Assembly: GCA_002269645.1 (NCBI GenBank)
Contig: NIVC01000245.1
Location: forward strand, 682,001-746,000
Direction: 5' to 3'
From: Macrostomum lignano
Taxonomy: Eukaryota
Length of the DNA stretch: 64,000 nt
Part shown: one piece after another, positions 12,820 to 55,812 of the stretch
How the letters are laid out: every line of letters starts with the position of its first letter
How positions within the stretch are numbered: position 1 is the first letter of the stretch
Position numbers and translations under genes: made by a program
The notes under the pieces: generated by a model
Told to the model about the DNA's origin: nothing
The model's database searches: none
Seen by the model: the letters and a program-made list of their open reading frames with translations, nothing else

Positions 12820-13194
12820 GGGGCCGTAGCCCAGCGGTAGCACAGCTGCTCTGGTGTGCCAGCGACCCAGGCTCGATTCCAAGTGCAGTCACATTAATTT
12901 GGGGCTGAATTGGAATCTCGGCTTCGCTCCGCTCGTGCAATTAACGGCCTTGAGAGCCAACCCCCCCCCCCCCAAGGCACAGTAAAGTGTACATGCCTAA
13001 CGATAATATAAAGTTAGGGCCGCTGTACACTCCTGTGTGAGTGTGTGCCTGCGTACGTATCCGCGCGCTTGTATGCCTGCTCAGGGGAGTCGGCGGAATG
13101 GGCAGCAATGCCTCTCGCCGGTTGTGTTCCTATGTTCCTATGTCGCTTAAAGTTCGCCAGGGTGCACACAACCCCCTGCCTTTAATAAAAAATA
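12820..13194 (+). mobile_element. tRNA-derived SINE, copy 1
   Basis: A-box-like TAGCCCAGCGGTAG and B-box-like GGCTCGATTCC, A-rich 3' end, and a homologous copy at 43153-43420. Confidence 0.7.
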
Positions 13195-14098
13195 GGTGGT
13201 GTGGTGATTCTTTGGATGGGGGATTCCTTAGATGGGAGATTCAGTTTGGTGAAATTTTATTGCGTGGGAAAACTGTGTTTGGAGTTTGGACGAAAAGCCC
13301 ATAGGGGGTTGGAATTGGCTAACTGAGGAAATTGTTTCACTAATCTTGCTGGGGGTACTTTCTATAAGGGAATGCTTCCTATAAGAAGGACGCTTGCTCT
13401 TAGGGGATGCTTGCTCGGAGGAGAATTCTAAAATGTCAAGATTAACAAGGGGAATTATTGAGATACATGTATAAAATCTTGCCTAGGGGAATTAATGAGA
13501 TGTTAAGGCTTAAGAGGGACTTGCTGAGATACCAAGGCTTGTTGGGGGGGGTAATTGCTGAGATGTCAAGTTTTAGGGATAAACTGCTGAGATGTCAAAT
13601 CGTGTCGGGGAATTGCTGAGATGCCAAGGCTTAAGAGGGACTTGTTCAGATGTCAAAGCTTGGGTGGAATTGCCAAGATGTCAAGGCTCAAGAGGGAGTT
13701 CCTGAGATGTCAAGTCTTGGGAAGGAGAATTACTCAGATGTCAAGGCTTGGGGGAATTTCTGAGATGTCAAGGCTTGGGGGGAATTGCTGAGATGTGAAG
13801 GCTTAAGAAGGAATTGCTGAGGTGTCAAGTCTTGGGGAGGGGAATCGCTTAGATGCCAAGGCTTTGGACGGGGAAAAATCGGTAAGATGTCAAGGCTTGC
13901 GCCGGAATTGCTGAGATGTCAATGCTTGGGGTAAATTTCTGAGGTGTCGAGTCTTGGGGGGGATTTCTATGAATTGATGATTCTTTGGGTGAGGGATGCT
14001 TCTAATGGATATCTTTGGATAGGTGATTCATTGGGGAATTCCTCCGATAGGGCATTGCTTCGATGGAGGGTTATTTTTAATGGGGGATTATTTAGTCA

Positions 14099-14280
14099 CA
14101 GGGGCAGCGGAGCCTAATATTTTTGAGGGGGCACCGGGCACAGGGCAAGGGGGAGCACAGGTACCTTTGTAACTGCTAATTAGGGCCTAAAAATCTGAAA
14201 AGCACTAAAAATTATCGCGTGGACTCATTTTCTGGGGGGGGGGCACGTGCCCCCGGTGCCGCAAGCTCCCGCCGCCCATG
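14099..14280. mobile_element. 182-bp MITE inserted in the Helitron satellite region
   Basis: Imperfect TIRs CAGGGGCAGCGGAGC / GCTCCCGCCGCCCATG. TATTTAG occurs near both ends. The insert is absent at the homologous site near 10130. Confidence 0.6.
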
Positions 14281-15379
14281 TATTTAGATGAAGGATTCTT
14301 TAGATGCGGGTTATTTTGACGGGGGTTCTTTACGAGTAGATGAAGCATTCTATTGATAGGGGGATTATTTAGAGGGGAGATCTATGGATTATTTGGATGG
14401 GGATTCTGTGGATGGGGATTGTGATGTGAATTATTTGGGGGAGGAATCATTGGATATGGATGGATGGGGGATTCTTTAGATAGCAATGAATGGGGAAATT
14501 TTTTTGATAGGGATGGAGGGGGAATTATTTGGATGGGTATTCTTTCGATAGGGGGCTTCTGGGGCTTCTGTAGACGGGGGATTTCTTGAATAGGGGATTC
14601 ATTGGATGGGGAATTCTTCAGATGGGAGGATTCCTTGAATGGGGAATTCTTCGGATCGGTGATTCTATCGATGGGGTTCTTTGCATTGGGGATTTTGCGG
14701 ATGGGGAAATCTGTGGTTGGAGTTTGGACGGAAAGCCCCAACGGGGGTTGGAATTGGCTAGTCCAATATACTAAAAATGGTCTGTCTGTGTCTATCTATC
14801 TATCTATGTGATCGATTAGAGAAAAAATGGCTGGACCGATTTTGTTCGAACTTGCACTGTTCGATCAGAAATTTTCCCGTGACTGTACAGGCTAAGAAAT
14901 TGCTCGATGCTAAAGGCATTAAATATTCGAAAAACATGCTTTTTTGCAAAGGTCAAGCAAACTTTTCGACTTGAAATGCATTGTAAGAATGCTAGAGAAA
15001 AAACTGACTGGTTGAATTCTGATTCTGAAATAGATTGCATCATAACTGAATTGTAACTCCGACTTGAATTGAAAATGCAGTTTGGAAGCGTAGCACCAGA
15101 CTTGATTTAAATTGCGTAACCATGCATATTGTTAACTGATACTGACTGACTGAGAAATTGATTATGTCATAACTGCTTCGTGTGATTTACTCTATGCTTG
15201 GATTTTAAAGTGTTGAATTATATAAGTGCAAAATTTGATGTTATCAAAACGATGAGAGCTAGCCTAGAGGTGAACAAACTGAACTGCTAAATGCAGCAAC
15301 GATGGTTCGAATTTTCATAGAGTATAATTTTTTTAATTAAAGCTTTTCAACGTCAGGAAAACTAAAAGACTTTTTAAAA

Positions 15380-17520
15380 AGAAGCGTCATGTAATGAATC
15401 ATAGAAGCGTCATGTAAACAATCATAGAAGCGTCATGTAAACAATCATAGAAGCGTCATGTAAAAAATCATAGAAGCGTCATTTAAAAATCATAGAAGCG
15501 TCATGTAAACAATCATACAAGCGTCATGTAAACAATCATAGAAGCGTCATGTAAAAAATCATAGAAGCGTCATGTAAACAATCATAGAAGCGTCATGTAT
15601 ACAATCATAGAAGCGTCATGTAAAAAATCATAGAAGCGTCATGTAAAAAATCATAGAAGCGTCATGTAAAAAATCATAGAAGCGTCATGTAAAAAATCAT
15701 AGAAGCGTCATGTAAACAATCATGGAAGCGTCATTTAAAAAATCATAAAAGCGTCATTTAAAAAATCATAGAAGCGTCATGTAATGAATCATAGAAGCGT
15801 CATATAAACAATCATAGAAGCGTCATGTAAACAATCATAGAAGCGTCATGTAAACAATCATAGAAGCGTCATGTAAACAATCATAGAAGCGTCATGTAAA
15901 CAATCATAGAAGCGTCATGTAAACAATCATAGAAGCGTCATGTATACAATCATAGAAGCGCCATGTAAAAAATCAAAGAAGCGTCATGTAAACAATCATA
16001 GAAGCGTCATGAAAACAATCATAGAAGCGCCATGTAAAAAATCATAGAAGCGTCATGTAAACAATCATAGAAGCGTCATGAAAACAATCATAGAAGCGTC
16101 ATGTAAAAAATCGTAGCAGCGTCATGTAAAAAATCATAGAAGCGTCATGTAAAAAGTCATAGAAGCGTCATGTAAAAAATCATAGAAGCGTCATGTAAAC
16201 AATCATGGAAGCGTCATTTAAAAAATCATAAAAGCGTCATTTAAAAAATCATAGAAGCGTCATGTAATGAATCATAGAAGCGTCATATAAACAATCATAG
16301 AAGCGTCATATTAAAATCATAGTAGCGTCATATAAACAATCATAGAAGCGTCATGTAAACAATCATAGAAGCGTCATATAAACAATCATAGAAGCGTCAT
16401 GTAAACAATCATAGAAGCGTCATGTAAACAATCATAGAAGCGTCATGTAAACAATCATAGAAGCGTCATGTATACAATCATAGAAGCGCCATGTAAAAAA
16501 TCATAGAAGCGTCATGTAAACAATCATAGAAGCGTCATGAAAGCAATCATAGAAGCGCCATGTAAAAAATCAAAGAAGCGTCATGTAAACAATCATAGAA
16601 GCGTCATGAAAACAATCATAGAAGCGTCATGTAAAAAATCGTAGCAGCGTCATGTAAAAAATCATTGAAGCGTCATGTAAACAATCATAGAAGCGTCATG
16701 TAAGAAATCATAGAAGCGTCATGTATACAATCATAGAAGCGTCATGTAAAAAATCATAGAAGCGTCATGTAAAAAATCATAGAAGCGTCATGTAAACAAT
16801 CATAGAAGCGTCATGTAAACAATCATAGAAGCGTCATGTAAACAATCATAGAAGCGTCATGTAAAAAATCATAGAAGCGTCATGTAAACAATCATAGAAG
16901 CGTCATGTAAACAATCATAGAAGCGTCATGAAAACAATCATAGAAGCGCCATGTAAAAAATCGTAGAAGCGTTATATAAAAATCATAAAAGCGTCATTTT
17001 TGAAAAATCATAGAAGCGTCATGTAAAAAATTGTAGCAGCGTCATGTAAAAAATCATAGAAGCGTCATGTAAACAATTATAGAAGCGTCATGTAAAAAAT
17101 CATAGAAGCGTCATTTAGAAATTATAGAAGCGTCATGTAAACAATCATAGAAGCGTCATGTAAAAAATCATAGAAGCGTCATGTAAACAATCATAGAAGC
17201 GTCATGTAAACAATCATAGAAGCGTCATTTAAAAATCATAGAAGCGTCATGTAAACAATCATAGAAGCGTCATGTAAACAATCATAGAAGCGTCATGTAA
17301 AAAATCGTAGAAGCGTCATTTAAAAATCATAGAAGCGTCATGTAAACAATCATAGAAGCGTCATGTAAACAATCATAGAAGCGCCATGTAAACAATCATA
17401 GAAGCGTCATGTAAACAATCATAGAAGCGTCATGTAAAAAATCATAGAAGCGTCATTTAAAAATCATAGAAGCGTCATGTAAACAATCATAGAAGCGTCA
17501 TGTAAAAAACTAATGAAAGT
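15380..17520. repeat. 23-bp satellite (AATCATAGAAGCGTCATGTAAA[A/C])n, about 90 copies
   Basis: Continuous tandem array with no unique spacers. Confidence 0.97.
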
Positions 17521-18418
17521 GTCTTTTAAAAAATTAAGAAGCATCATGGTAGAATAAAAGAAGCGTCATGTCAGACATGAAGGGTGTCATGTAAAAATTA
17601 AATGCAGCTATAATGCTGTGCTGGGGAGAAAAAAACTGAGACATAAAGGCTCTCAGAGAATAACTGAGATTACGGGAGGGGGGGTTTCTGAGATGTCAAA
17701 GCAAAAGTCAGAAGCTACTTCAAAGTTCATGTACTTTACTCATTTTTTATTGCATTCTTTGTTGGCTCGCCACGGGGGGCGCTGATAGAAGAAGAGTCAT
17801 GTAAAAAATAAAAGTAGCACTACAAGCGTATGTATACATAAAAGAAAAGTCATGTTCAAGTTAAAAGATTCATTTGGGAATTGCTACGATGTCAAAGCTT
17901 GGTGGAAATCGTTATAGTGCTTGATTCTTAAAGAAGGAATCACTAAAATGTCAAGGCTTAGGGGAGAAGAATTGCTGAGATTTCAAGGCTTTAGGTTGGG
18001 TTAAAGTTAGGTTTAGGTCAGGTGTGGGTTGAGGGTTATATTTTATCGGGTTTCAAGGTTAACAGAATAACAGGGGATTTTTTAGATTTCAAGGTTTATG
18101 GGGGCCATCGCTGACATGTTAAGGCTTACGGGGGGAATAGCTGAGATGTCAAGGCTCACGGGGGTATAAATGAGATTTCAAGGCTAAAGTCAGAAGCTAC
18201 ATGTAGTTTATTGAAAACTTTTTATTACATTATTTGATGCCTCCTCAGGGGAGGGATCGCTGATAAAAAAAGTGTAATGTAAAAAATAAAAGAAGCTTCA
18301 TGTCGAAGTTAAGATATTCATTTGGGAATCCCTACGATGTCGAGGCTTGCAGGGAATCGCTATAATGCTGTAGTAGTGCTATTATGACTCTTAGAGAGAA
18401 TTACTGAAATTTCAATGC

Positions 18419-18475
18419 TTTAGGGTTAGGTTAAGGTTAGGGTTAGGGTTAGGGTTAGGCTAGGGTTAGGGTTAG
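18419..18475 (+). repeat. Interstitial telomere-like (TTAGGG)n tract
   Basis: About 9 perfect or degenerate TTAGGG units. Confidence 0.8.
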
Positions 18476-19305
18476 AAGGTTGACAGATATTTTTAGATTT
18501 CCAAGGCTTATTGGGGGCATTGCTGAGATGTCAAGGGGGGAAGTTGATATGTTAAAGCTTGTGGGGGGATTATTGACATGTCAAGGCTTACAAGGTTTGA
18601 CAGGAGATTTTTTAAGATTTCAAGGATATATATGTAGCTTATTAAAAAAACGTGTATTGCATTTCTTTGGCTCCCCAACGGGGGGCGTAGATTGCTAGTA
18701 GAATCTAAGGCTATATTTTTCTAAAATGTTCACACTTAATTCCAATTTGATGTACATGGATAAAAATATTACAATATAACTTCAGGAGGGCTACGGCTAC
18801 TCTGATGCAACGCTTCGGCAACATCGTTCTACAACGCCAGAGCTGACGGCAATTCTGCATGCCCATTCCACACTGACTCCTAAGCACAGACAAGCGCGCC
18901 AATACTGTACCCAGGCACGGATGCACTGATACACACACTCGCAACAGAATGTACCGCGTCACCGACTTTCTAATCATCTGGCATGTACATTCTCTGTGAC
19001 TTGGGGGCTGGCCCTCATGGGTGCGAAGCACACAACATCCTCCTGGCTTCAAAAGGTTAACTAGATTTCAAAACAACGCTAAGATCACATTGAACACATT
19101 TTCCAATAAGAAATTGTTTAAGTTATGTTGTAATGGAATTAGTTTCGAATTCATGTAAAACATGCGCTGTACGTGTTGCTAAAAAGCGATTTTAGAGTAC
19201 CAAATAAAATACCTATGATCTATTGGCGATACGTAGGCCATTTGGATTTGTTTAACTTATTCAAAATCGAGATCGCGCTGCGCAATGTAAATGCTTCCTA
19301 AATAT

Positions 19306-19999: not shown

Positions 20000-20284
20000 C
20001 TACCAATCACTATCACTGTCACTGATGTCGTTCTTTCTGTCTGGCCCGGCACTGTTGCACTCCACATATTCACCGTTAAATGCCATACACTTCAGATAGC
20101 GTTCGATCAGATTGTCAAACCCAGCCTTCCAGAAGCTGGAGTCCAGCTGGTGCAGCGATGCGTTAGCGGCGTCAATGACCTCCTGACGTGTCGTGAAAAC
20201 TTGCCCACGCATTGGCAACTTTATTGGACCGAAGAGATGGAAGTCGGCAATCGCGAGGTCGGGGCTGTAGGCTGGGTGACTTAG
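20000..20284 (-). pseudogene. mariner transposase, C-terminal part
   Basis: LSHPAYSPDLAIADFHLFGP..RGQVF..RYLKC..FNGEYVE. Confidence 0.9.
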
Positions 20285-21360
20285 TGTAGAGTGTTCTACC
20301 TCCCGTAAGAAGACATAAAAGTGTTAATGTACTACTCACACATTTTATTTAGTAGTAAATTGAAGAGCATGAATAAAGGTATGCTTTGAACTATAAGTAT
20401 ATTCGGACTAACCAATAGGAAGAGAGAGACCTCGAGCATGCTAATTTTAGAAATCACCCAATCACGTGCGACCAACAACTGTCAATTCAAACCCCACCTT
20501 CAAGTCATCATTTTGTTTGCACTCGGGTTGCACCCGGATGAACCAATCAAAGTCTACCAGCTACGGTAACCAATCATGCGCTTTTACAGTAGACTAGTTG
20601 CGCAACTTTCTACCCTGTCATGCTTGACAGCCACCGAATCGTGACCCTTTGACATTTGCGAAGACAGTGATGTACGACCTCGAGAGAGGTCTGAACGCCT
20701 ATAAATACAAGTGGTCCGGAACGGACCCGGAGCCAGAAAATCTCCAAGGGAGAGAAGCTCCGAAGAGGAAGCTCTAGTGAAGCCTTCCTGAAGAAACTCG
20801 CGTCGTGGACGAGTTCTTGCGGTAAGCCTTACTCATTTGCGCCCGTTGGTTGAGACGTCTCGCTCAAGTCTATTGAGACTTGAGTTTATTTGAGTCTGCT
20901 GAGACTCTTGAGTCTGTTTAGACTCCACTGGTTGCAGTCTCCAGAAGGACTGCCCCTGATAGATCTTAGAAGACTATCAGTGGTTTCCGGAGCCATACCT
21001 AGAGTGCATAGAGGCACTACTAGAAGGAGTAGGCTTATATTAAACCGCAGTTTGGCGCAGGGATCCCCATTGTTAATTTGGAAGCTTCCGATTGGTCCGA
21101 ACTACAGATACCGGCCGGCAAGAAGTCAAGAGGACAAAGGAGATAACGGACCAGATCAACTGTTACCAGGTGCCTAAACTTCCTGAAGGACAGGAAAGTT
21201 ACTGATCGCGATACTACGGACGAGGATTATTACGAGAGCTCTCATTTAAGGACTCAAAGGTAATTGAATACCTTCATTTGATTACTGGGTTGCCTAGCTA
21301 CAGAGCTAGAAGTGATTGTTCCTTGATTACAGTTGAGGACTGGTAATAAGGAACACATCA
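20285..21360 (+). repeat. 5' LTR
   Basis: TGTAGA...CATCA, direct repeat of 29915-30990, with TATAAATA near 20700. Confidence 0.97.
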
Positions 21361-21362
21361 AT

Positions 21363-21373
21363 TGGTGATCTCG
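21363..21373 (+). promoter_or_regulatory. Primer binding site, possibly tRNA-Trp
   Basis: TGGTGATCTCG lies 2 nt after the LTR. It resembles the Trp-type TGGTGACCCCG if two G:U pairs are allowed. Confidence 0.45.
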
Positions 21374-22056
21374 CCCTCTCGGCACTACTCAAACTTTTGA
21401 GCAATAGCCTGGCCAAGCTATTGTAAAGTGACGAAAGAGCGACTTAATTAATTTTGCGCGCACGTGTTAGAGGTAACACTTTTCGACACTTTTCGATTTT
21501 TGTACGATTTGAAACTCGAGTAAAAGCTTAGGTATACAGGCTTGAGTACCTGTCAATTTTGAGTAACGTTTGAGCACGCGTGTTAAATTTTTGTTTTTAT
21601 CGAGCTCGAGCAAGAGTAAACCTTAAACAAAACCGAAAACAACGTCCGGTACACTGAAAACAAACCGAAAAATAATCAATACACACTAAAACAAAACCGA
21701 AATTAAAAACACTTGACGAAAGCTAAAACAAACCGAAATTTGATAAAACGTGACAAGGCACGTCACGAAGACAAGAAAGGCCTTTGAAAAAAGCAAGAAG
21801 CAGCTGCACTTCAAGCACTTTAAAGATACACTTTGCGGGACGCCGCATAAGTGCGAAAATCAGCCAGCGAATAAGAGGTCAGAAAAAGCAGCCAAAAGCC
21901 GAATTCCGCTCAAGGTCAGACATAACAAATTGAGGTGTCAAAAGCACCGCAAGACAATCAGTTACAACCGAAGTTTATTTCGAAAGAAACACCACACTGG
22001 AAGATCCATTACAAATCGACCCAGACCTAGAGCTACCGTTCTATCCCATCAACAAC

Positions 22057-23722
22057 ATGGCGCGGCGCAATCCAACGGTGCACAGAGATATCAAAGAGAC
22101 AGTTGGCACCTTTTCTATGGAAAAAGACTTTAACACCTTTGTTGATCATTTTGACCTGGTATGTAGGGAATACAACCTACAAAATCCAGAAAAAGCGCAA
22201 CTGTTGCCACCACTCCTCCAAGGCACTGCACGAGAGATTTATGGTAAACTAGATGCGGCAACACAGCAAAACTACCCAGCATTAATCATTCAACTGCGCG
22301 CGCATTTCAACCGCTGTGGCACAAACAGATCAGTGCTACTGCACAAGTTGCATAACAGAAGGATGCAGCCAACCGAATCCTTCCTGACCTTTGTGGACGA
22401 CATCCGTCAGATAATTAAGGCACTGCATCAGCCAACACTGCCAGCTGCAGACCAACCACCTCTGGGTGCGGCAGAATTAGCCGCTAGAGAGCGACAGCGA
22501 TTGATGGATCGCGAACAAAATCTGATTCTGCACGTAATAAACAATGCACAGCCGTCACTCCGAGATAGACTTCTACGCGAAAACATTGAAACCGAGGAAG
22601 ACCTTTTACGGTGCGGAATGCAGTGGGAAGCAAGCGCTCCACTAATGACAACCGGCAACACAGAAGTGCAGAAACTGACACAGCAACTAAACAAACTGAT
22701 GCAACATCAAACAGCCGTTATCGCCGAACAAAAAAGACGAAATGAACGAGCCCAAGCCAGATGCTATTACTGTGGACGAGAAGGACACTACCAAATACAT
22801 TGTCCTCATCGGTCAACAAGAAATGACATGCAGCGACAGCCATTCAACAGAAGGAAGCCGCAAAAACCATGGCAACAACATCAAAATTGGCAGCAGCAAA
22901 ACACGAAACGCTTCGGAAACAATGGCTACAGACCGCGAAACACCAGATACATGCCCAAGCAACCAACGCAAGCGATGCAACGATATGCAAACGCCATCAC
23001 GTACACACCGGAAAGCGAACAGCAAGAGCAGCAAGTCTTCACGATAGACGACTTAGAAATGGACTTCACTATCAATGAAATCGACTGGCTCGATGCGGAG
23101 AGCAGCGAAAAGACAAAAAACATCAGCATGGTCGAAATGAAAGAAACTAACATTGACAGCGAAGAAGAAAAGACAGAAGTGAGCACAGAAAAAACATTGT
23201 CAAGCGACATCAGTGAAAGAAAAGAAGAAACAAACAAAGGCAACGACAAAGAACTGGCAACGAAGGATGACAACGAAAGAAGCAACGACGGAAATACAGA
23301 GATGGAAGAAGAACAGCAAGAAGAAAGCAGCGATCACGATTATGAGATGCAGAATGACGCTGATGACAACCAAGCCGCCGACAAAGAACATGAAGACGGA
23401 AGGCACAAAGGAATGGAAGAAAGAAATCTAAGCTCCGACAGCGATCAATGCTACGAGATCCGCTATAAACGAAATGGTGAAGCCTACATCAAACGGTCGA
23501 CTACAAGGCCGAAGTGAGGTACCGCAGACAATGGAGTGACACAACTACAACATCGGAAGAAAGCAAGGAAGAAAATGATGAAGACGACAAGCAGCGGAAC
23601 GAATCGGATGCCTTGCGCTCGGAAACGCCAATGGAACAAGAGGAAGAATACGATGCGGACGTAGAAGATAACGAATGGCAGCCGCAGCCAATGCCAGCAA
23701 AGACAACGGCAACGTTCAGAAA
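22057..23722 (+). CDS. gag: Gag (capsid, CCHC zinc knuckle, long acidic linker); -1 shift near 23512
   Basis: Gypsy capsid-like N-terminus (FNTFVDHFDLVC..KAQLLPPLLQGTAREIY) and CYYCGREGHYQIHC knuckle. The E/D-rich tail continues in ORF 23514-23753. Confidence 0.9.
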
Positions 23723-25729
23723 ATGGCGATCTGGATATTCTGGATCATCATAATACTACTGACGGCAGTAGTCACCAAAGCAACAGCAATGGAAAACCAA
23801 TGATATGTCCAACGGATGCGCATATCCAACCGATGATCTACAAGATACCAACCGACATCAAATGCAGCTACTTCAAGACAAATCAGACGAAGCCAAAGAA
23901 GATCACAATTGATCTCTACAAAGCTAACATCAAGAAGCATCGACAACTCGGAATAGTGTGCTTTAGAGACAAGCACCTAGTGGAAAAAGTTTGGCGAGGA
24001 CAATGGAACAGAATTCGATTTTGGCAACACGAACTACATGTGTCGCACGCTGAATGTCTACAATGGAACCAAACACTGTTCTCAAAGGATGGTCAGCTAG
24101 AACCGGATGAGAAAGTGGGGGAGGCACAACTTTACCGAACGAAAACTCAGCAAACGGACGATATGTACACTTTTCGGAAGCATGGACTAACTACATGACA
24201 CGAAACAGTTACCTAATCAGGAATATTCCATTCTACCACAATCCTTTTGAAAAAATGGAGTCGCTACAACTGCAATTAAGTGACTGCCGATACAGCAAAG
24301 GATGGTGTCCAACGCCGATACTGCGGAATGAGGAACTATACAGCTTACCGTTGAGTCCAACATATCATCAAGACTATCGATGGCAAATAATACGCAGAGG
24401 CGACTCACGATATGAAGAACCATCTAAGTCACGACAATACTTCTTCGCGTGGGAAGTTGAGCCGGAAATTGACTGCAAGCTTCAAAAGTATCACACAGTT
24501 GAAGGAGGTCTACTGTCAAACACGTTTTTGGCAAAGTCAGGAGACTTGGCACTGACGTTTCAAAAGAAACCAGTCGAGCAAAAACTGAAATGCAAGGATA
24601 CAGACAAGACACTATTCATCTCGGAACAAGAGATACCAGTCTACGTAAAAGAAGACGACAAACAAACCTTTCTGGCGATCATCAACGGAACGTATCAACA
24701 GCAGGAACAACAGAACAGACGACGACGAGACATCGAACGTCCCAAACTGGTGTCAAACCGACTACTGTCAGCAAAGATAACGGCTTTGGATCACAATCTA
24801 CACAACCAGTTAAACCACTTGCATCGAACACTGGTCCAGCTAACTTGCAAAATGCACGCAATCAACTTAAATTATGCCAGACAAAACTACTATGTCAACC
24901 CTACGATGACTTTTCGTAAAATCACCGGAATGACGAACGTTTTGGCAGTTCCAATATACGAGCATCTGTTGATATACAAGTGCACGCCGATACAGCACTT
25001 TAACATCTTGCCGTCGAACACGTCAACAACCTGCTACGACAAGCCAAGGATTGAAGCGTTCTACGAAGGAAAACGAATTCAGGATTCTTGGACACGGTAC
25101 ACAACATCATAGTTGGCACCGCAATACCGAGACCCTGCACCACGGCAGCAAACTACTATCAACTGGACAATGCACTACACGTCATCAAAACAACTGGAAC
25201 GACAGCAAACATCACAGAACCGGAAGTAATCGTCGACGAAAACTACGACATGGAGGATTTGAAAATCCGATTCAACAGAACGAAGTATACGCCATTCGCC
25301 GATATCCAACTTGACGAGATAACACCAGGATGGACGATCAACGACTTCTTGCAAGCGTTCATCACCCAACGCAAGATGATTCACCAGCTGTTCACAAGAA
25401 AGGACAAAGGAACCGGGACAGGAAGATTTCCCGTCCTTGTTTCAATGGACAGCGCCATCAAATCATTTTGGACAAACAGCTTCTGGGAGCTGCTCAATGG
25501 AAGAGGCAGTCTCTATCAAGGATTCATCTTCTACGGTGCTTGCATTGTGTGGATTGTCACGGCAATCTTCATCATTTCGTCGATCGTACGGTGCTTCAGT
25601 CAAACTTGTCCAAGAGCTAAGAAGACAGTTAATGCCATAATGCAAAGAACGACAACGGAAGGCGACAACAGTTTAGAACTAACAGAAACTGCACATCGTG
25701 AGGTTCAAGGGCAACCGACACTAGCAACG
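23723..25729 (+). CDS. env: Env-like class III fusion glycoprotein embedded between gag and protease; -1 shifts near 23792, 24185 and 25082
   Basis: Signal-like MAIWIFWIIIILLTAVVTKATA (23723-23788), RRRR furin site (24717-24728), six N-X-S/T sequons, gB-like Cys/helix pattern, and TM FIFYGACIVWIVTAIFIISSIV (25523-25588). Confidence 0.85.
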
Positions 25730-28700
25730 CGGCTATATCCATCGATTCCGACAACACCAACGGCACCAAGAATACAACCACCCAACTATCAAGCAGAACA
25801 GCAAGACCCAAAATGGCCAGAGAACTACGTATGTACTCTACACGCCGAAATTGGCAAAGCCATGGCTCAAGTGGTAATCAACAATCTACCATGTCGAGCG
25901 CTACTCGACTCCGGCAGCTCCATCACAGTTATATCAAAACAACTGTGCAACAAGCTACGACTTGCTCTACGGCCAGCAACAATCGCAGTTGCAGGAGCAG
26001 GAGGACATTCGCTAAACATTCTGGGAAAAGCCGACATTGATTTAAGAATCGCTAATAAACACTTGACAGTTCCAACGTACGTCATCGACAGACTCCCAAA
26101 CCAGGACGTTATTGTTGGCATCGACACGTTCAAGCAGCTTCGACTACCATTGACCTTCGACTTCAATAAGCAAACGTTCAAGATCGACTCGGTAGAACAA
26201 CCATTGATCAACCAGATCCGAGTACTACCAAAAGTAACATTGCAACAAGATGTCATCATCCAACCGGAGAGCGCCTGCTGGATAAAGGCAAAGGCAACTA
26301 ACGCAACGGAGGAAGCAATGATATTCGACCCAAACAGAAGAGTCACGGCTAAACACCAAATTATGATGCCTACGGCACTAGTACTGGTTGCAAAAGATAA
26401 ACAGCTGCCAGTACAAATATTCAACCCGAACACAGAAACGGTTCATCTACGACAAGGAATGTGCATCGGTCATCTCAACACCCAAGCATCGGTTATGCTG
26501 ATTGAGCAAGCGACTCCACGACTAACAGAGGAAGAATTTCAAAAGAAGATCAATTTGGATGACAGCCCGATTACGGAACAGCAAAAGAGGAAAGTTCGAC
26601 AGCTGTTGTGGAAGTACAACGACGCTTTCTGCCACCATGACTACGACATCGGACGAGCCAAGGACATCAAACAGGAAATCAAACTTCTGCCGCACACGGA
26701 ACCAATTCAGTGCAAACCGTACCCGATCGCCAAGCATCTGCAACAGCACTTCGATGAGATTATCGACAAAATGCTGAAACACGGCATCATCAGCAAAGCC
26801 ATTTCAGCATACTCATCACCATGTCTCTTGGTACAAAAGAAGGAGACTAACGAAAGACGACTCGTATGTGACTTCAGACTGCTGAACAAGTACATACCGA
26901 CGGATCAGCAAAGCCTACCGAAGATCTCCGAACTACTAGCAAAGCTCAACACGGCAAAATTGTTCACAGTGTTCGACCTACGTCATGGATTTTGGCAAAT
27001 TGAAATCGAGAAAGAGTCACGACAGTACACGGCTTTCAAAACCTACAATGGACAAGTATACGAGTACAATCGATCGCCGATGGGACTCAGCAACAGCCCA
27101 GCAACGATGAGCCGACTAACAGCATACATGCTTGCAGGATGCACGAACCTGTTGCACTATGTTGACGACATCTTGGCCTACGGAGAAGACTTCGAACGAC
27201 TCTATGAAGCGACGGAGAAGGCCCTCGCGCTTATCAACGACAAGGTCTTAAGCTACAACCAACTAAATGCAAATTCTTCCGAGACAACGTGCGTTACCTG
27301 GGACATCAGGTGACAGCCAAAGGAATTTCACCGGACCCAGACAACGTGGATAAAGTGAAAAAGTTTCCTACGCCAACTAGCAAAACGAAGGTCCAATCAT
27401 TTCTTGGACTTGCGCAATACTTCCGAAAGTTCTTACCCAACTTCGCGAAGACAGCAAAGCCGCTGTACGACCTGCTCAAGTTCGACAAATGGAAGCAGGA
27501 GAATTGGACACAAAAGCAACAAGAAAGTTTTGACGAAATCAAACGACAGCTGACATCAGACGCACTGCTACAGCATCCGGACTTCGACAAACCCTTCATC
27601 ATCGAGACAGACGCCTCAGGAACGGGACTCGGAGCAGTCCTACTACAGGAAACTGAAGACAAAAAGGAACGACCTATAGCCTACGTCAGTCGAGCACTTA
27701 AACCGAATGAGACAAAATGGTCAGCTACGGAACGAGAACTACTAGGAGTTCTGTTCGCCCTACGACAGTTTCACTACTACATCTATGGATCTCCATTACA
27801 GACGATAGTACGCACAGATCATGCACCGCTGACCTACGTCGTAACTACAAAAGGACAAACAAACAACCGACTCATCAGGATGACACTCAAGATCCAGGAC
27901 TACAACTACAAGCTCGTCTACAAACCAGGAATTACTAACAAGGCCGCGGACGCCCTGTCAAGAGCCTACGAAGTCAACGCCATTCATCCAATCCCTAACA
28001 TCAAGGAATTGGTGGATGAGACTGAACACGACAACTTCTACATAGCAGTTAAAAACAACGACAAGGACATCAAGCTCAGCCCCGTGGAACGAAAATTCCT
28101 GCGCAAGCAGCGACAACATTTAACAATCAACAAGTCACGACTCTACTGGATGAGTGACAACAAACCTAAAATCTACATGCCATATTCGTTTAGGCAGGCA
28201 ATTCTCAACGAGCTGCACGACAACCCACTCGCTGGACACCTGTCGGCAGCCAAAACCATTGCAAGAGTGGAGCAATACTACTTTTGGCCAAGCATGCATG
28301 GCGACATCAAGCAGTATTGCAACAACTGCCACTCATGCGCAGCATCAAAGACAGGACGACGACAAAAACCACAGCTACAATCGATACCAAAGTCAACAAC
28401 TATGGACTGTCTCAGCATCGACATCACCGGACCGCTGCCACCGAGCTGTCTCCATGGCATAGCCTACACCTACATCCTAACAGCCTTGGACATTTTCTCA
28501 AAGTTTGCTATTGCCATACCAATACCGGACATCACAGCTCAGACAGTGGCAATGGGTTTCTTCAACGACATCATCTGCAAGTACGGTACGCCAAAGAACC
28601 TCACATCGGACAATGGATCGCAGTTTACGTCTCAACTCTTTCAGCAAGTGGTGAAGATCCTCAACATCACGCAGATCTACACATCGACCTACAATCCGAA

Positions 28701-29370
28701 GGCGAACATGGTTGAAAGGTTTCACCGCAACCTACACGAGATGATTACACACTTCGCGCATCAACAACCGGACGACTGGATCATCTATCTGCAAGCAGTA
28801 ACAATGGCCTACAACAGCGCTATTCATCGATCAACGGACAATACGCCATTCTTTCTAATGTTTGGGCGAGACTTCCAGCCGCCAAACCTATTGGCACAGC
28901 AACTACTACCATCGCAATATGTGGAAGTCCCGACGTCCATTCAAAAGTTCGTCACGCAACTACACCTCGCATGGAAAGTAGCCAAGCACAACATCGACAA
29001 TCAGGTGGCTCTAACCACCGGCACCGACACGAGATCGACAACTCTGACAGCCGGCGACATCGTCTACCTGCACTATCCGCCGCAACAGACGCACAAACAC
29101 GCACAGAAGTACAAAGGACCATATCGAGTGGTCCAACTAACGTCATCGACAACGGCACGCCTGGCCAATGTGCAAGATCCTCATCAGCACCAATTCTACG
29201 TGCACATTCATCGACTAAAAAAGATCAACACTGACACGACAACGTTTTTACCGTCACTAGACAACGCTGATCGCACGCGTTCGGCGAACCGCCACATCGC
29301 AACAAAACACGAGGAGACACAAACATCAACCGAGAATCAGCAACATGGCTACAATCTGCGACCTCGTTAA
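25730..29370 (+). CDS. pol: Pol: aspartic protease, RT, RNase H, integrase; -1 shift near 27243
   Basis: LLDSGSS, RLVCDFRLLN, FDLRHGFWQI, YVDD, IETDASG, HHCC (LHDNPLAGH..CNNCHSC), D-D-E (IDITG, SDNGSQF, VERFH) and KYKGPY. Confidence 0.95.
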
Positions 29371-29481
29371 GTTGCGAAAACAACCCGTGTAGAGACCGGG
29401 TCAGAATAGCTCTACAGCTTCGCAAGCTTGTCGTAAGAGGCGACTAATCTGAGCGACTTCAAACTTCAAGCGACGACGACA

Positions 29482-29775
29482 ATGGGCAACGCACTGTCCA
29501 AACAGGCGCCCCAACTACAGCAACTCTATGAATGCCCAATATGTTTAACTGATGACTTGGCTGTCAAGCCACCAATTATTTGTGAAAACAGACATCGCAT
29601 ATGCGGACAATGTTTAAGCGACTCACATTATATTCAGCTCTGGCAGAATTGCCCGATAGGTAGAAGAGTTTGCGGCAGTGCGCCTATTGTTAGTCTTGGC
29701 GCACATGTCAATACTGTAACCAAAAACATTTCATTTGCATGCGTATACTTACCTTTAAATAACTTTTATAACTAA
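29482..29775 (+). CDS. Small accessory RING-finger protein with N-myristoylation motif, 97 aa
   Basis: MGNALSK start in good Kozak context (ACAATGG). CPIC-x11-C-x3-H-x2-C-x2-C-x12-CPIG(R): the last ligand is G (GGT, one base from TGT), with another C four residues later. Confidence 0.7.
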   Translation: MGNALSKQAPQLQQLYECPICLTDDLAVKPPIICENRHRICGQCLSDSHYIQLWQNCPIGRRVCGSAPIVSLGAHVNTVTKNISFACVYLPLNNFYN

Positions 29776-29914
29776 CGCTCTTAACTACCCATTACTAAAT
29801 ACCTGTAACACTTGTGACAAAAGATTTTTATAAAGACATGCTCGTACTTTTTATGCGTTTCAATCCTCTATAATTTAAAACTCGGGACGAGTTTTTTGTA
29901 AACATGGGAGATTT

Positions 29915-30990
29915 TGTAGAGTGTTCTACCTCCCGTAAGAAGACATAAAAGTGTTAATGTACTACTCACACATTTTATTTAGTAGTAAATTGAAGAGCAT
30001 GAATAAAGGTATGCTTTGAACTATAAGTATATTCGGACTAACCAATAGGAAGAGAGAGACCTCGAGCATGCTAATTTTAGAAATCACCCAATCACGTGCG
30101 ACCAACAACTGTCAATTCAAACCCCACCTTCAAGTCATCATTTTGTTTGCACTCGGGTTGCACCCGGATGAACCAATCAAAGTCTACCAGCTACGGTAAC
30201 CAATCATGCGCTTTTACAGTAGACTAGTTGCGCAACTTTCTACCCTGTCATGCTTGACAGCCACCGAATCGTGACCCTTTGACATTTGCGAAGACAGTGA
30301 TGTACGACCTCGAGAGAGGTCTGAACGCCTATAAATACAAGTGGTCCGGAACGGACCCGGAGCCAGAAAATCTCCAAGGGAGAGAAGCTCCGAAGAGGAA
30401 GCTCTAGTGAAGCCTTCCTGAAGAAACTCGCGTCGTGGACGAGTTCTTGCGGTAGGCCTTACTCATTTGCGCCCGTTGGTTGAGACGTCTCGCTCAAGTC
30501 TATTGAGACTTGAGTTTATTTGAGTCTGCTGAGACTCTTGAGTCTGTTTAGACTCCACTGGTTGCAGTCTCCAGAAGGACTGCCCCTGATAGATCTTAGA
30601 AGACTATCAGTGGTTTCCGGAGCCATACCTAGAGTGCATAGAGGCACTACTAGAAGGAGTAGGCTTATATTAAACCGCAGTTTGGCGCAGGGATCCCCAT
30701 TGTTAATTTGGAAGCTTCCGATTGGTCCGAACTACAGATACCGGCCGGCAAGAAGTCAAGAGGACAAAGGAGATAACGGACCAGATCAACTGTTACCAGG
30801 TGCCTAAACTTCCTGAAGGACAGGAAAGTTACTGATCGCGATACTACGGACGAGGATTATTACGAGAGCTCTCATTTAAGGACTCAAAGGTAATTGAATA
30901 CCTTCATTTGATTACTGGGTTGCCTAGCTACAGAGCTAGAAGTGATTGTTCCTTGATTACAGTTGAGGACTGGTAATAAGGAACACATCA
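29915..30990 (+). repeat. 3' LTR
   Basis: Direct repeat of the 5' LTR with one difference noticed (A20825 vs G30455). Preceded by a short purine tract GGGAGA. Confidence 0.97.
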
Positions 30991-31837
30991 TTAGCTGACG
31001 AAAGCCCAGCTCTTCCACCTTGGCGCGAGTGCGAGCAGCGGCATGCGGACGCGCGTTGTCCCAAAGGATGAACGGCTTCTGACGCATGATTCGGCGCTTG
31101 GATAGAAAGGCAGCACGCAGTTGCTCGAGCTGGTTAATCACATAGTCGGCATTGATTGTCTGGCCCTGCGGCAGGTAGTCGACGAGTAGCATGCCTCGCG
31201 CATTGAACCACACTGCACATGATGTTCTGGGTCCAGGCCGACTTCATGGCCTTTGTGTGTGGGTGCCGTCCCTTTGGCCCCCACTGCATCGACTGCTGCT
31301 TTGTCAGTGGATTAAACATTGCAGCGGCGTCTCGTCCATTGTGATTACAAGCTCCTTGAACTTCTCATCACCAAGCTCGTTCCAGACAGCCCAGTTGTCT
31401 GCCGAACATCGCACCCGTGCTTTTTTGTGTTCTTCTGTCAGCTCTCGTGGCACCCACTTAGCGCAAATCTTCGACCAGCCGTGGCGTTATAGAATGCGAC
31501 TCACAGACAAGCAGTGAACGCCGCACACACTCTCCACTTCACGCACACATGCAGATGGGTTTGCCTCCAAATATTGGAGCACGGCAGCCGCATTGTTGTC
31601 ACCTGTGCTGGAACGCGGACGGCCAGAGCGAGCAGCATCAGCGACGCTTGTTTGACCATCAGTAGCAAGTCAATGGTGGGCAAACACCTGTGTGCGACCC
31701 AACGCATAATCACCGAAAGAAGTGCAAACTTCGTTAAAAGTCTGCGTTGGTGTCTTACCCATGTGCTGACATGCCATAATAAAGCAACGTTGACTTTCTT
31801 TCGAATCAAAATCTGAGTGATTTTTTGGTCGGCTCAT
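30991..31837 (-). pseudogene. mariner transposase, N-terminal part (frameshifted)
   Basis: MSRPK..QRCFI..GKTPTQTF helix-turn-helix region, RSGRP, WVPREL, TMDET and WDNARPH. D to D spacing across the insertion is 34 residues. Confidence 0.9.
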
Positions 31838-32284: not shown

Positions 32285-32556
32285 TAAAGCCATCCAAAGT
32301 GAAAATCCTGCCTACGCTGACTGCGAAGGGCCTGGCTGCGTGCAGCCTTAGTCTATGGGCCATAGACTATAAAGGACAAGCAAAGTGATAAAAAGCCATC
32401 CAATGTGAGAATCGATTGGTCTTTTAAAACTTTGCTTGTCCTTTATAGTCTATGGCTCATAGACTAGGCTGAACGCAGCTAGGCCCTTCGTATTCAGCGT
32501 AGGAAGGATTCTCACATTGGATGGCTTTTATCACTTTGCTTGTCCTTTATTGTCTA
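32285..32556. repeat. ~270-bp nested inverted repeat (palindrome)
   Basis: 32285-32386 is approximately the reverse complement of 32429-32530, and 32365-32413 of 32507-32554. Confidence 0.8.
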
Positions 32557-33272
32557 TATAGAGCCAGCACAAAGCCAAGAGCGACAAGCGACAAACCAAG
32601 GAGGGAAATTCAAAGCGTGTGAATATAGTCGTGTGAAACTTGAATATTAAGGATTAAAGCAAAATAGTGGAAAACTTAATCTTATTAACAAGTCAACCAG
32701 TACATGCAGAAATATAATTAAGTAGAAAAAATAAATACCAATAATTACTTTGCAAAGACTTTCAAAAAGACAGAACACTGAGAGATGTACAAGAACTCAA
32801 GCCGTAACAATACAGTCCTTGATTAATGCAGCCCTTTAAGTAAATAAAATTATTTCAGAGCGAGGCGAGCTGTATTAAAAGTTAAATAATGCTAATGGTA
32901 CGCTAATAGGCCTGTAAATTATTTCGCTCATGCAAAACAGAAGTGCATATTCATGCAAATATGAGCTAGAAGAAGCTGTACTCCGCAATGGTACTGCTTC
33001 CTGAATAGAGGCAAATATTTGGCTTAGGTATGTTTGCTTTTAGCTGCCTAAGCACTAATGTATTTGAGCCAATGTCAACGTCTGCTGTGTATTTAACACT
33101 CTTGGCTTTGAAGTATTTGACATTTGAGTGACGTAGCATTCCTATAACTGAGTGAAATTCTTCATTTATTGACTTATGGCATCATCATAATAACTAAATA
33201 CATGTAGCTACAGCGATATGTTTGTGTTAATGTTTACCAAATTGCGCTCGAAGTAATTCCTTTGTCTGCAAC

Positions 33273-35025
33273 CTAGCTTTGCAACCAAAGTTCATGTCTC
33301 AAAGTTGAGTTTCGTCCCTTCATTAACTTTCGTTGATCGATAGCCGAAGTCGCAGCCGAGCTGCAGGCGATCAGACAGTCGTGAAGGAGTTCAACAGCTT
33401 CCAGCATGGTCAGCAGCGAGCAGCCAAGGTACAGACCGAGTAATCCACCTGTGTCAGCAATCAGGTCGATAAAACTATACGACTTCTCAATGAGAACTGC
33501 TGAGCCGAGACTCTTGCCGGTGTACACTCGAATTCGCATCATTTGGTCTTGCAAGTAATTCGAGCCGACAACTATATTGCGGGTGGTCAAGTTATTCAGC
33601 AAGCTATTGGTTATGTTCAAGACTTCATCATAGCCAGGAAAGTGCGCAGCGGGATTTTCTAGCCTTTTCTCCTGAACGCGATACTGAAACCCGGCTAGAA
33701 GGTCGCGCTGAAAAGCGGAAAAGACTCGTGGCCAGTTGCTAAACGAGTAGGCGTACTTGAAACGGTCCGTCTGACAAGGCCGAAGTTTGGCGCAGTATTG
33801 ATGAATGGCATTCTGATAATTCCAATATAAAGCTGGGTTGTTTTCTTTGAAAAACTGTTCAGCCGACGCCTGACCTGTGAGAACGCGGCTGGCATTCGAG
33901 CAGCTTCGAGCGTGGATAAACTTCCGATCGCGAGGTAACAGGTGACTCACACAGCCGCTTTGCTGCATCATGAGCTGGTTACTTCGTTCGGCCCGACAAA
34001 GGTACTCGCTAAATGCATAGGCCGTCTCGGTGTGATCGTACGGACTGATGATGCGACTGGGCTCAGGGCTACTCGAGCACTGCATTCCTTTGCCAGAATG
34101 AGCCTCTCATCTCGAGGTCGATTCGATAGTCTTTTCCAGCGCTGAGCTGAATCATGGACTCGGAGTCCGGATAGTGACCAGGTCGAACGAAATAAAGGTT
34201 TACACCAGATGCAGTCTCGGGTTTAATGCCATTCTCAAAGTCCCATGAAAGAAAGCTCAGCTTTGATGTGTTTATTGTTGCAATCGGCAGTAGTGACGAT
34301 TTTTTTGGGAATTCAAAAAATGCACCATCCAAAAATAGTGTCATCTCTAAATAGCTGCCCTGATTGCTCAGCTCTGGTCGCTGCGATGGCGTGGGCACCA
34401 GGCGAATGCAGTTAAGGTCCCTAAAGCTGTGAAACGGTATTTCCCCAACTGGTGCTTTTGGCGAGCCGTTCAAGATCAGCATGAAAAGAAACTGCTTCAT
34501 ATGATGACCCAGTTTGTCGCTTATAAGGCGAAATGGCATTGTGGATAGAAGAATGCTTGCCAACCTGGCTGCATCAAAAAAATTTTTAGGTGACCCACCA
34601 AAGGCTAAAGTAAGACTTTTGACATAGCTGTTTATTTCGGCTGTGCTGTTGGGATCCAGGATGTACGGATAACTCCCTGACATGATGGCATTGTTGCAGA
34701 TGACCAGATCGGGGAACTCGAACTCCACCGAGTTCTGCTGCAGCGTGGTGGTCTCTGGCTGCTCGTTGTAGGTTTTGATGAAGCTCTGCACCTGTGTGAC
34801 AAAGCCGGTGAGGCAGAGCGCGAAGCCGACAAGCCAGATGACCTTGACGTAGATCGGACGGGACCCCACGAGTCTTCCGAGGCCGTGAGCCGTGGTGTCG
34901 CTCAGCCATGAGTGCACAGGGTGCGATAGAATCTCCTTGATTCCTTTCCGTTGACAGCCTGGATTCGTTGATTCGACAACTTGCTGTTCTTCTGTCATCG
35001 TGAGTCTGGAATGCTGATGTTCCAA
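33273..35025 (-). CDS. Intronless DEG/ENaC (ASIC-like) channel, copy 1; apparent frameshift near 34075-34110
   Basis: Pre-TM1 TTAHG motif, TM1 VIWLVGFALCLTGF, FPDLVICN, Cys thumb, and TM2 DTGGLLGLYLGCSLLTMLE (GxS filter). Two 1-nt homopolymer deletions relative to copy 2 explain the break. Confidence 0.88.
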
Positions 35026-37107
35026 TTTTTTGATGATGTTCCAATGCTTGGGCTATACGAGATCTGGTTGCAGTTGCAATTGAGACTAAAGGCATGTTTT
35101 TGCGAATGATAGATACAGCTGAGGTTTCGTACACTGAAGTTCGTATCCAATTATCGTGGGGATTAAAAGTCTTGGTATTGTCACTGGAATTCTATGATTT
35201 TTTAATTTTCACTATCAAATATTGTCAAGAATTTTCAAGCTTACCTTATTTAAATGTTATCCTATCTTCGTATACAACGCTGGTGATAAATTTTTTTTTA
35301 AGTTCTGTGGTTTGAGCGGGTTCAAGTTAAACCGTCACTTGCTATTTAATACTCTCTTTTTGCCATCATCACGAATGTTTGTCAGCGATTGTGAGCTAAT
35401 GGAATGACAAACAATAGATTATTAAACAGTTGAATATCAGGCATAAAGCATGTGCGAGTGACTTATTGACACTAGCAGCTTCTCTAGACTGCAATTAGTT
35501 AGCAGACTATCAGACCTGATCAGACCTGAAGCTATTCGACCTATCTTGTCTGTACTTATCCCTCTGTAAATTTGCATGGGAGTTATGATATGTTTAATCA
35601 AGCTAGTGTTGACTTGGGAAGTCGTTGACCTCATCAATTCGACTATATCAAATTGCAATGCTAATGCCGTTCACAACACAGTAGCCAGCCAGTTGCCTTT
35701 TATTGAAACAGATCAAATTTATTACTTCAGTGTCATAATTTCCAAAGTAAGGACTGTAATTAACACGTAGCTTGTATTCCTCAAAAATGGATGACTATGA
35801 GAAATAGCTATCCATGGAGAAATGAAATGGAGGAGGACACTACGCTCTGTTTTCTTAGAAATGAGAGGATGGCCGGTAGAGTCGTTGCATGGAGTTTCGG
35901 CCATAAACAATTCGAGTATTATTTGCAAATAATCGAGCAAAAAATCCAACGTTTCGTGAGCTGACTAAATGCACCAGCGATACGACAGATATTCGTTCGT
36001 TTCCGGGCCTGTGTTATCGCGTTATCGTGTGTAATTGAAGCCGCCGGTTACTCTCTGACTTACTGTACTATTAACAGTGTATTATCTGCCTCTAATTTAT
36101 TCCTTAAAAGGGCACGCTCTAAGTGGTCAATTAAGTCCAAAACTGTCGAAAAAATTTTCACGCTTTTGTCTGATTTTAAACAACTCAACAACCTCCAGCT
36201 TTTATTTCCAAGAAACTTGAGTGTGGTGTCCTTCTACTTGAGTTGTCCATGTAGCGATCATCAGCTTCTGAACTTTTTATGGATTTTATTGACAAGTTTA
36301 TCTTGAAGAAAGAGTTTAGAACAGTTTAAGTTTTGCCTAAACTTTTAAAGCAATTTCTCAGACAAAACATTTGCCCACGGAAAAGTATGACTAATGGAAA
36401 TAGAGAGTTCAATTTATGATTTTCTCATTGCACTGTTGTATGCATTTGGATACTTTTGATGGTAATATTACCGATATCAATCCAGTTCTCTATGGCGCTG
36501 CGTGTAATAAAAACACCTGTCAGTCTGTTCAAACAATTAGTATGAACAATTATAGACTTCAGAAATAGCTAGTAAGCTAGTCTTGGGTGAATAAAAAACG
36601 GTTTATTATTTTTTTCGGCTTTAATTCCGCTACTGACGGGAACGACAGTCATTATTATAAACTGAAAAATAATTGCTGAAAACCGAATAAGAAAGGGTAA
36701 AAGTACAAGAGGGTAGAATGGTGTAAGAGCAGAAATTCAATTAGTGGGCAAAACGTGAAGAGGTGCATTGTAAAGTATTGCGCCGATATTTTGGGCAAAA
36801 GATCGATTGATTAGTAAAATTAATTAAAACAGTAAAATAAGCAAGGGATCTTGATTCTAATCAAGAATCAAAATTACAACTTCGAATGTTTTATCAGTTC
36901 CAATAATTTGTTGACTAAATGGGCTTGAACACTATTGAATTCTTGTACATGCAAAGAACAGACAGTAAACAACAAAAAATAAAGATATTCTGAATTTTTG
37001 TTTCCTTAAAATCGATTCGGCTACGTGATTTGGCAAATTATAGCTTAATAACAGTAAACAACATTATATAGAATTACTGAATCAGTATTGTTACACCTGG
37101 ACAAACC

Positions 37108-45600: not shown

Positions 45601-45950
45601 CAACAAACGGCTGTACAGAAGGACTCGAAGTGTTCAGCCGATAAAACCTGTTGCTTTTGGCTTCAAATTTGGTAGAATTTGAGCTGCCGCCGCAGGAGAG
45701 GAGGGTGCCGGAGTCCAATAGGCCTTGACAGACAGACTGAGCTCGAGAGTGACTGTCCGTCTGGCTGACTGATGCTGACGCTTCAGACGATGTCAGTTGA
45801 AGGTATTCAATAGCAGCAGTGTGCAGCTGCTTGCCTGAACGTTTCAGATCAGTTTGAATTGAGGGAAACAGGCAGCCAAGGAGCTGCTTCCACTGGCGAG
45901 TGGCTCTGAACTGCTGCTGGCTTCCTGTGGATGAAGGACGACGGTTTTAA
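42624..45950 (-). CDS. Unidentified multi-exon protein-coding gene (approximate exons 45510-45950, 44480-44880, 43490-44225, 42624-43020)
   Basis: Long GC-richer open stretches with Q/S/E-rich and helical segments, separated by AT-rich or repeat-filled introns, ending FRVHHPDLFRKHFAVD*. No family recognised. Confidence 0.5.
43153..43420 (+). mobile_element. tRNA-derived SINE, copy 2 (intronic, antisense to the host gene)
   Basis: Homologous to 12820-13194 over the head (CCCAGGCTCGATT..AAGTGCAGTCACATTAATTTGG) and core (GCCTGCTCAGGGGAGTCGG). Confidence 0.7.
44985..45480. repeat. 20-bp minisatellite (ATGAGTTTGGCGCCCCTCTA)n
   Basis: About 25 tandem units. Confidence 0.95.
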
Positions 45951-45984
45951 TAACTGCAATATGTATCGGCTTCCCCAGTGTCAG

Positions 45985-51560: not shown

Positions 51561-51561
51561 C

Positions 51562-55423: not shown

Positions 55424-55812
<389 letters not shown>

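Follow-up and report, generated by a model that had tools for sequence, protein, structure and literature searches.

The retroelement and its coding regions

The window, i.e. the whole 64-kb stretch of Macrostomum lignano DNA that was analyzed, contains a Ty3/gypsy LTR element at 20285-30990 with the gene order gag-env-pol (Table 1). Pfam searches find a zinc knuckle upstream of env and protease, reverse transcriptase (RT), RNase H and integrase downstream, which places env between the other two genes. The order PR-RT-RH-IN within pol, with RNase H and integrase of the Ty3/gypsy type, assigns the element to this group. Its LTRs differ at one of 1076 bases, which marks the element as young, and it is a recent insertion. 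The host genome holds at least 40 DNA matches to it (40 scored of 93 candidates), and a Macrostomum lignano entry in UniRef shows 97% identity where the two overlap.

Table 1. Features of the element in the window copy
Feature	Position	Strand	Remarks
Left target-site duplication TTAG	20281..20284	+	4 bp; repeated at 30991-30994
5' LTR	20285..21360	+	1076 bp, TG...CA, 1 mismatch to 3' LTR; TATAAA at 20700
Primer-binding site	21363..21374	+	reverse complement equals the 12-mer given for Mlig_errantivirus_2
gag	22057..22830	+	capsid fold from first Met, then CCHC zinc knuckle
gag-env linker	22831..23722	+	acidic, fast-evolving; frame slip near 23.49 kb in window copy
TM1	23723..23790	+	putative internal signal/signal-anchor, small residues at end; breaks near 23.73 and 23.79 kb
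env ectodomain, N-terminal part (PH-like domains I/II)	23794..24716	+	break near 24.14 kb
Furin-type site RRRR	24717..24728	+	
Long central helix, gB domain III equivalent	24756..24896	+	model residues 324-370
Domain IV and membrane-proximal region	24897..25519	+	break near 25.08 kb
TM2, env membrane anchor	25520..25588	+	hydrophobic; in frame with protease
Late-domain-like motif cluster, TM2-protease linker	25733..25789	+	LYPSI 25733, PTAP 25757, PPNY 25778
pol: aspartic protease, RT, RNase H, integrase	25868..29370	+	frame slip near 27.27 kb
Accessory RING-finger ORF 3' of pol	29482..29775	+	broken after first Cys/His cluster in window copy
3' LTR	29915..30990	+	short purine run just before

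The family is very probably a published one. The supplement of Chary & Hayashi (PMC13524379) includes Platyhelminthes_Rhabditophora_Mlig_errantivirus_2, of envelope type ENV_HSV and with 16 copies, which shares with the window family the host phylum and species, the gene order, the envelope type, the multi-copy state, an identical 12-nt primer-binding site and the LTR spacing (9.7 vs 9.63 kb). It is the species, the primer-binding site and the LTR spacing on which we base the identification; two short motifs of the window env were not found in the supplements of PMC13524379. According to that study, whose operational sense of "errantivirus" is used here, the elements of Nematoda, Bryozoa and Platyhelminthes all have an ENV of the HSV/gB type in GAG-ENV-POL order, the ectodomains can be flanked by a signal and a TM segment or by two TM segments, and the GAG-ENV-POL elements are not monophyletic; the flipped gene order in nematodes is credited to Sacco et al. 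2022. A gB-type env in a GAG-ENV-POL element thus belongs to a class that has already been published, and the points added here are the tail motifs and the polyprotein topology. The main text of PMC13524379 does not contain the one-frame topology, the tail motifs or the RING ORF, though its figures may show part of them.

Some observations concern the LTR and the subfamilies. The LTR sequence (20285-21360) has about ten times the contig depth of the internal region in a DNA run, and this depth, which is not a copy number, hints at many solo LTRs. A canonical GT..AG joint at 20821-21106 inside the LTR, downstream of the TATAAA, was seen in two of three runs guessed to be RNA but not in the DNA run. 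It removes an ATTAAA at 21039 and may come from any LTR copy. Canonical heat-shock elements, looked for after PMC12801592, were not found in the LTR; in the available part of that paper, env is not discussed. Along the element, dS among the subfamilies L030, L037, L082 and L028 jumps between values of about 0.02 and 1.2, which identifies them as recombinant mosaics.

Frame breaks of the window copy

The window copy is interrupted by five frame slips in gag/env and one in pol. Each break is common to only 0-3 of 37-38 sister copies, in a rough count in which neighboring gaps score as differences. At the five break sites in gag/env, the window sequence is contradicted by contigs from four out of four sequencing runs; these are short-read contigs of a multi-copy family and do not speak for the window locus itself. 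Near-identical young copies show 0 substitutions and 2-3 gaps between them. As the breaks are rare in the sisters, as the run contigs differ and as gaps occur without substitutions, the breaks are private to this copy, and we think that they are probably assembly errors. The opposite reading, in which the window copy is truly a dead, decayed provirus with an env pseudogene, can point to the number of slips and to the recurrence of three of the six break sites in 2-3 sisters. It sits poorly with the nearly identical LTRs, with the four env frame pieces, which are 98.8-100% identical in protein to the sister copy folded below and free of in-frame stops, and with the purifying selection on the family. 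We therefore consider it unlikely, and it would concern the window copy only and not the family.

Fold of the envelope ectodomain

All fold searches and the structure model used the unaltered ectodomain of a natural sister copy as query, not the window copy. A full HMMER scan with this ectodomain yielded 51 relatives; among the 48 of them that were scanned, 16 match PF24664, 12 of these above the cut-off, and there is one weak herpes gB match. The sister env itself reaches 22.8 and 23.2 bits (E ~2e-5) against PF24664, the Monjiviricetes fusion family, and thus falls short of the curated cut-off of 27. When the ectodomain was compared with the PDB as a single sequence, nothing was found under E 0.25. 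A 41-sequence profile searched against the PDB gave 17 matches, all of them to herpesvirus gB, with a best E of 3.9e-14, and its alignment to EBV gB is gap-free across the central helix. The residue spacing behind the furin site, which the first-pass annotation had matched to that of HSV-1 gB, is reproduced with 25 steps from A to C and 17 from C to NP (26 and 18 when counted inclusively) and agrees with this EBV gB alignment.

The model of the sister ectodomain has a pLDDT of 77.7 and a pTM of 0.58, and its central helix spans residues 324-370. In Foldseek searches of solved structures, the best match is to herpes gB (E 3.7e-21). The whole-chain TM-score to solved gB is only ~0.25 (rmsd ~45), so that the support for gB is domain-wise, with the domains arranged unlike those of the mostly postfusion structures. 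Among predicted viral structures, the best Foldseek match is Midway nyavirus G (E 2.6e-26, TM 0.40), and Beihai rhabdo-like virus 3, an orino-related virus, herpes gB and entomopoxvirus proteins are further top matches. A wide structural search returned as its best match domain IV of PRV gB (Z 11.6, rmsd 3.9, 163 residues), besides Bourbon virus GP (Z 6.0). In the same search, model residues ~30-305 matched, at middling Z, Chandipura G (Z 7.0, rmsd 5.2, 198 residues) and many PH domains (Z 5-6).

The long central helix, the beta-rich domain IV and the PH-like domain or domains that define class III proteins are thus all found in the model. The earlier suggestion of a class III, gB/mononegavirus-like fold is borne out by the profile, by Foldseek and by the match to PRV gB domain IV, and we regard the assignment of the modeled ectodomain to a gB-type class III fold as sound; its function in fusion is a prediction. 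With the gB proteins of EBV, KSHV, HSV-1, PRV and HCMV it has in common the central helix, domain IV, the PH-like domains, the cysteine spacing and a furin processing site. It differs in being only 10-15% identical, in its shorter ectodomain and in being embedded between Gag and Pol, and Pfam finds no genes for gH/gL-type partners in the element.

Sequence features and selection

In the window copy, env is split into four frame pieces; the frame opened at 23723 closes at 23803, and the last env stretch quoted in the first-pass annotation spans one of the breaks. The motif positions given there are correct, namely those of the hydrophobic 22-mer from 23723 and of RRRR. Although 23% of shuffled ectodomains contain a furin-type motif at some position by chance, the site lies at the same position in 23 of 32 covering homologs, and we take it as real for this reason. 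The six sequons that had been noted are present (NQT at 23881 and 24067, NGT at 24684, NTS at 25017, NIT at 25208 and NRT at 25274). Their number is at chance level, since shuffled sequences have a mean of 4.1 and 21% of them reach six, and the count was dropped as evidence. A C-terminal transmembrane segment is supported by the second hydrophobic stretch, from 25520. Ten of the 12 ectodomain cysteines occur in every covering homolog, and the other two in 32 of 33.

Env is under purifying selection, with a dN/dS of 0.03-0.11 in all four subfamily comparisons with unsaturated dS. This is close to the values for capsid and pol between subfamilies (0.00-0.04), while the gag-env linker reaches 0.28-0.45.

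Origin of env

The nearest kin of env, as judged by sequence, are other retroelement envs, most of which are 22-29% identical; among the 51 relatives, at least 27 have markers of gag, protease or RT. It had been proposed that the fusogen was captured from a chu-, nyami- or herpes-type virus, in which case this lineage would not have inherited its env from env-bearing retroelements. For such a capture speak the nyavirus glycoprotein as best predicted-structure match, with chu- and orino-related proteins close behind, the 12 of 48 scanned relatives that pass the PF24664 cut-off, and the title of Sacco et al. 2022, which claims the capture of an RNA-virus glycoprotein for nematode elements. The viral matches, however, all share only 10-15% identity with the env and, with entries from herpes-, entomopox- and nyamiviruses interleaved, single out no donor. 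Furthermore, at least four other env families of about 25% identity reside in the same genome, and Chary & Hayashi (PMC13524379) argue for an ancient co-divergence, with no global tree attempted. We find a capture by this lineage improbable, and the env may instead have been inherited from older env-bearing retroelements. Word-indexed homolog searches gave one, two and two matches, with no named viral glycoprotein among them.

The additional gB-type env families of this genome (L086-L096), at least four in number, have env in frame with protease; the supplement of PMC13524379 gives one M. lignano element. In one relative (P0006), a NADAR domain (residues 5-144) is found upstream of env in the same protein.

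The nematode endogenous retroviruses, which belong to another host phylum, reportedly have a continuous gag-env-pro-pol ORF, nyamivirus-like glycoproteins and small extra ORFs. The position of env before pol is a feature that they share with the element described here (Sacco et al. 2022). The glycoproteins of nyami-, chu-, orino-, borna- and entomopoxviruses (PF24664) and the chuvirus-like glycoprotein of mosquito BEL/Pao elements (PMC7642597) fall into the same gB-like class III branch, whereas the carrier in the window is a Ty3/gypsy element with PR-RT-RH-IN order and its env scores 22.8, below the PF24664 cut-off.

TM1 and the one-frame layout

The hydrophobic stretch at 23723 (TM1) is unusual, as an equal hydrophobicity is reached by only two of the 615 open 26-mers that begin with Met in any of the six frames. 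It had been read as a signal peptide hidden at the N-terminus of Env, with a start of its own, and this reading is not supported by comparison with other copies. None of the 39 sister stretches has the Met-Ala-Ile start, and the Met at 23723 was rejected as a genuine start, its ATG resulting from a frame break private to the window copy. In 23 of the 39 stretches, the segment and env start share one frame with the zinc knuckle, and TM2 shares one with protease in 27. A single open frame from gag to integrase (2480-2538 codons) exists in six of them; it is absent in the other 33, four of which are cut by contig ends.

The homologs show a similar arrangement. All 23 homologs in which 120 or more residues lie upstream of env have a hydrophobic segment before it, and in 16 of these a gag knuckle lies upstream of it in the same protein. 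Basic residues are more numerous before TM1 in 15 of the 23, with the reverse in three and ties in five. From its sequence context, the supposed signal peptide is internal. Overall, the explanation that fits best, and that we hold with considerable confidence, is an HSV/gB-type env of a one-frame GAG-ENV-POL errantivirus, with an internal TM1 and a putatively membrane-spanning polyprotein.

The alternative, which comes nearest to the reading of the first-pass annotation, is that splicing or internal initiation yields an Env made apart from Gag, with TM1 as an ordinary N-terminal signal peptide. An in-frame Met about 15-17 codons before TM1 in seven of the eight natural host copies displayed leaves room for such a separate start, and a strict 1:1:1 output of Gag, Env and Pol would be odd, as it is unusual among retroelements. 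Also, the canonical GT..AG joint in the LTR, in runs guessed to be RNA, indicates that the element can splice. Against this, a Met within 30 residues before TM1 exists in only five of the 23 homologs, the upstream Met is missing from L078, a member of the 65%-identical family, and among 15 of 23 joints there is no GT..AG joint into env, in runs whose RNA status is likewise guessed. We think that a separately made Env is improbable, and the following topology is that of the one-frame polyprotein.

This topology is built on hydropathy and charge, that is, on two hydrophobic segments with basic residues before TM1, and on the analogy to RNA-virus polyproteins. As an internal signal, TM1 would thread the ectodomain into the ER while Gag stays cytosolic; in the ER, signal peptidase could cut TM1 and thereby free the N-terminus of the ectodomain. 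Gag, which has no matrix domain, would stay tethered to the membrane through TM1. TM2 would return the chain to the cytosol, so that Pol would hang from the Env tail until the protease of the element frees it. Furin presumably cuts and thereby primes the ectodomain, trimers of which would fuse the membranes of particle and target cell, and once the particle is formed, the element protease would process Gag and Pol into their mature products.

Late-domain-like motifs in the Env tail

The linker between TM2 and protease contains LYPSI, PTAP and PPNY within 19 residues, and the complete cluster is present in 38 of 39 sisters. In other viruses, PT/SAP, YPXnL and PPXY motifs bind Tsg101, ALIX and Nedd4 ligases (PMC7995964). 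The motifs were first noticed in the window and afterwards tested in other sequences, for which 29 linkers from the 51 relatives were used. Host families were excluded, a host gene model and one BEL/Pao protein were left out by choice, and 20 relatives dropped out because they have no detectable TM2 or a linker of less than 40 residues. In the 29 linkers, ten strict motifs occur in eight linkers, compared with 1.4 in shuffled linkers (0 of 3000 shuffles reach ten), 1.6 after shuffling in 10-residue blocks and one in reversed linkers. The eight motif-bearing proteins are only 18-34% identical to each other. Gag-side linkers have three motifs in 2259 residues and, with two host families added, the linkers contain 4.0 motifs per 1000 residues vs 0.33 elsewhere in these proteins.

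By class, P[TS]AP occurs four times vs 0.23 expected (reached in one of 3000 shuffles) and [LIM]YPx[LI] three times vs 0.17 (three of 3000). PPxY alone is not enriched in the 29 linkers (two vs 0.6), and its separate enrichment was dropped, 371 of 3000 shuffles being as high; neither are non-proline Yxx-hydrophobic words enriched (17 vs 15.9). In a held-out test with four further host families found by PF24664, [LI]YPx[LI], a relaxed pattern chosen after the data were seen, was present in three and PSAP in two, and one family had neither; three of these families are 50-70% identical to each other and for this reason not fully independent. At the level of sequence, PT/SAP and LYPx(L/I) thus qualify as candidate ESCRT late domains and PPXY alone does not, and the host genome encodes UEV-domain proteins. 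We lean towards the view that PTAP and LYPx(L/I) in the tail recruit ESCRT for budding.

One may instead regard the motifs as trafficking signals or as by-products of a proline-rich linker, with particles that do not bud through ESCRT. YPx(L/I) also fits the Yxx-hydrophobic pattern and could be a tyrosine endocytosis motif; moreover, no strict motif is present in 21 of the 29 non-host linkers, PPxY by itself shows no enrichment, and one of the four held-out families has no motif. TAPP and SAPP, counted as decoy words, reach the same frequency as PTAP and PSAP, with most of them overlapping PTAP/PSAP in the linkers displayed. This reading deserves serious consideration, but we find it less than likely, because P[TS]AP and [LIM]YPx[LI] are enriched while non-proline Yxx-hydrophobic words are not, and because reversed and block-shuffled linkers fall far short of the ten motifs observed. 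The proposed ESCRT-recruiting motifs resemble the late domains of retroviruses and other RNA viruses in combining three motif classes in a cytosolic proline-rich stretch (PMC7995964). The known late domains reside in retroviral Gag or, where other enveloped viruses are concerned, in structural proteins (PMC7995964), whereas the late-domain-like motifs of the window, with a putative function, lie in the Env tail just before protease. Late domains in gypsy-type elements or in env tails were not found in the literature searched, a body that leaves most subscription journals outside.

Gag and the accessory RING ORF

The model of the Gag piece has a pLDDT of 84.9, and its best matches are retroviral capsids, which cover nearly the whole piece at E 0.004 or weaker. 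As the capsid fold begins with the first residues of Gag, there is no room for a matrix domain.

The RING ORF has two Cys/His clusters in the sister copies, with a length of 124-185 aa in most of them, and is kept in the 65%-identical family. An Atlas search with it retrieved only generic RING clusters, at 0.91 or below, and an arenavirus Z cluster at 0.87 that is a lead only. A Z-like role as myristoylated matrix protein was considered and is not supported, as the Met-Gly start is lost in the 65%-identical family. Its sequence would be compatible with an E3 ligase that possibly serves budding or counter-defence.

Implications for particle formation

Taken together, we tentatively propose that GAG-ENV-POL elements may form enveloped particles by a route unlike that of retroviruses. 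This route would include a double-spanning polyprotein, a Gag signal-anchor that replaces matrix, Env and Pol that are packaged covalently and late domains on the Env tail, and the RING protein may assist. If this is true, these elements would be budding retroelements that are infectious from cell to cell, with a gB-type fusogen that works without gH/gL, and the process could be observed in a transgenic model flatworm. The one-frame layout predicts a co-packaging of Gag, Env and Pol without a matrix domain, and the late-domain-like motifs of the Env tail would be a sequence sign of particle budding. Both added points bear on the question of how gB-type errantiviruses leave and enter cells, which is left open in the text of PMC13524379. 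As the family is young, multi-copy and under purifying selection in a model flatworm, budding and co-packaging can be checked in the RNA and particles of the animal.

Surroundings of the element in the window

The remainder of the window contains a non-LTR retrotransposon at 3154-6951, whose endonuclease, RT and RNase H are spread over two frame pieces. The minus strand carries a tandem pair of DEG/ENaC (ASC) channel genes, at 33273-35052 and 37521-38888, in which long frames run without interruption, and an ORF for a LicD-family phosphotransferase at 51562-52635. Dense minisatellite arrays with units of 3-60 bp occupy 8000-18500 and 45000-63400, about ten degenerate TTAGGG units are found at 18420, and a nested palindrome is located at 32286-32557.
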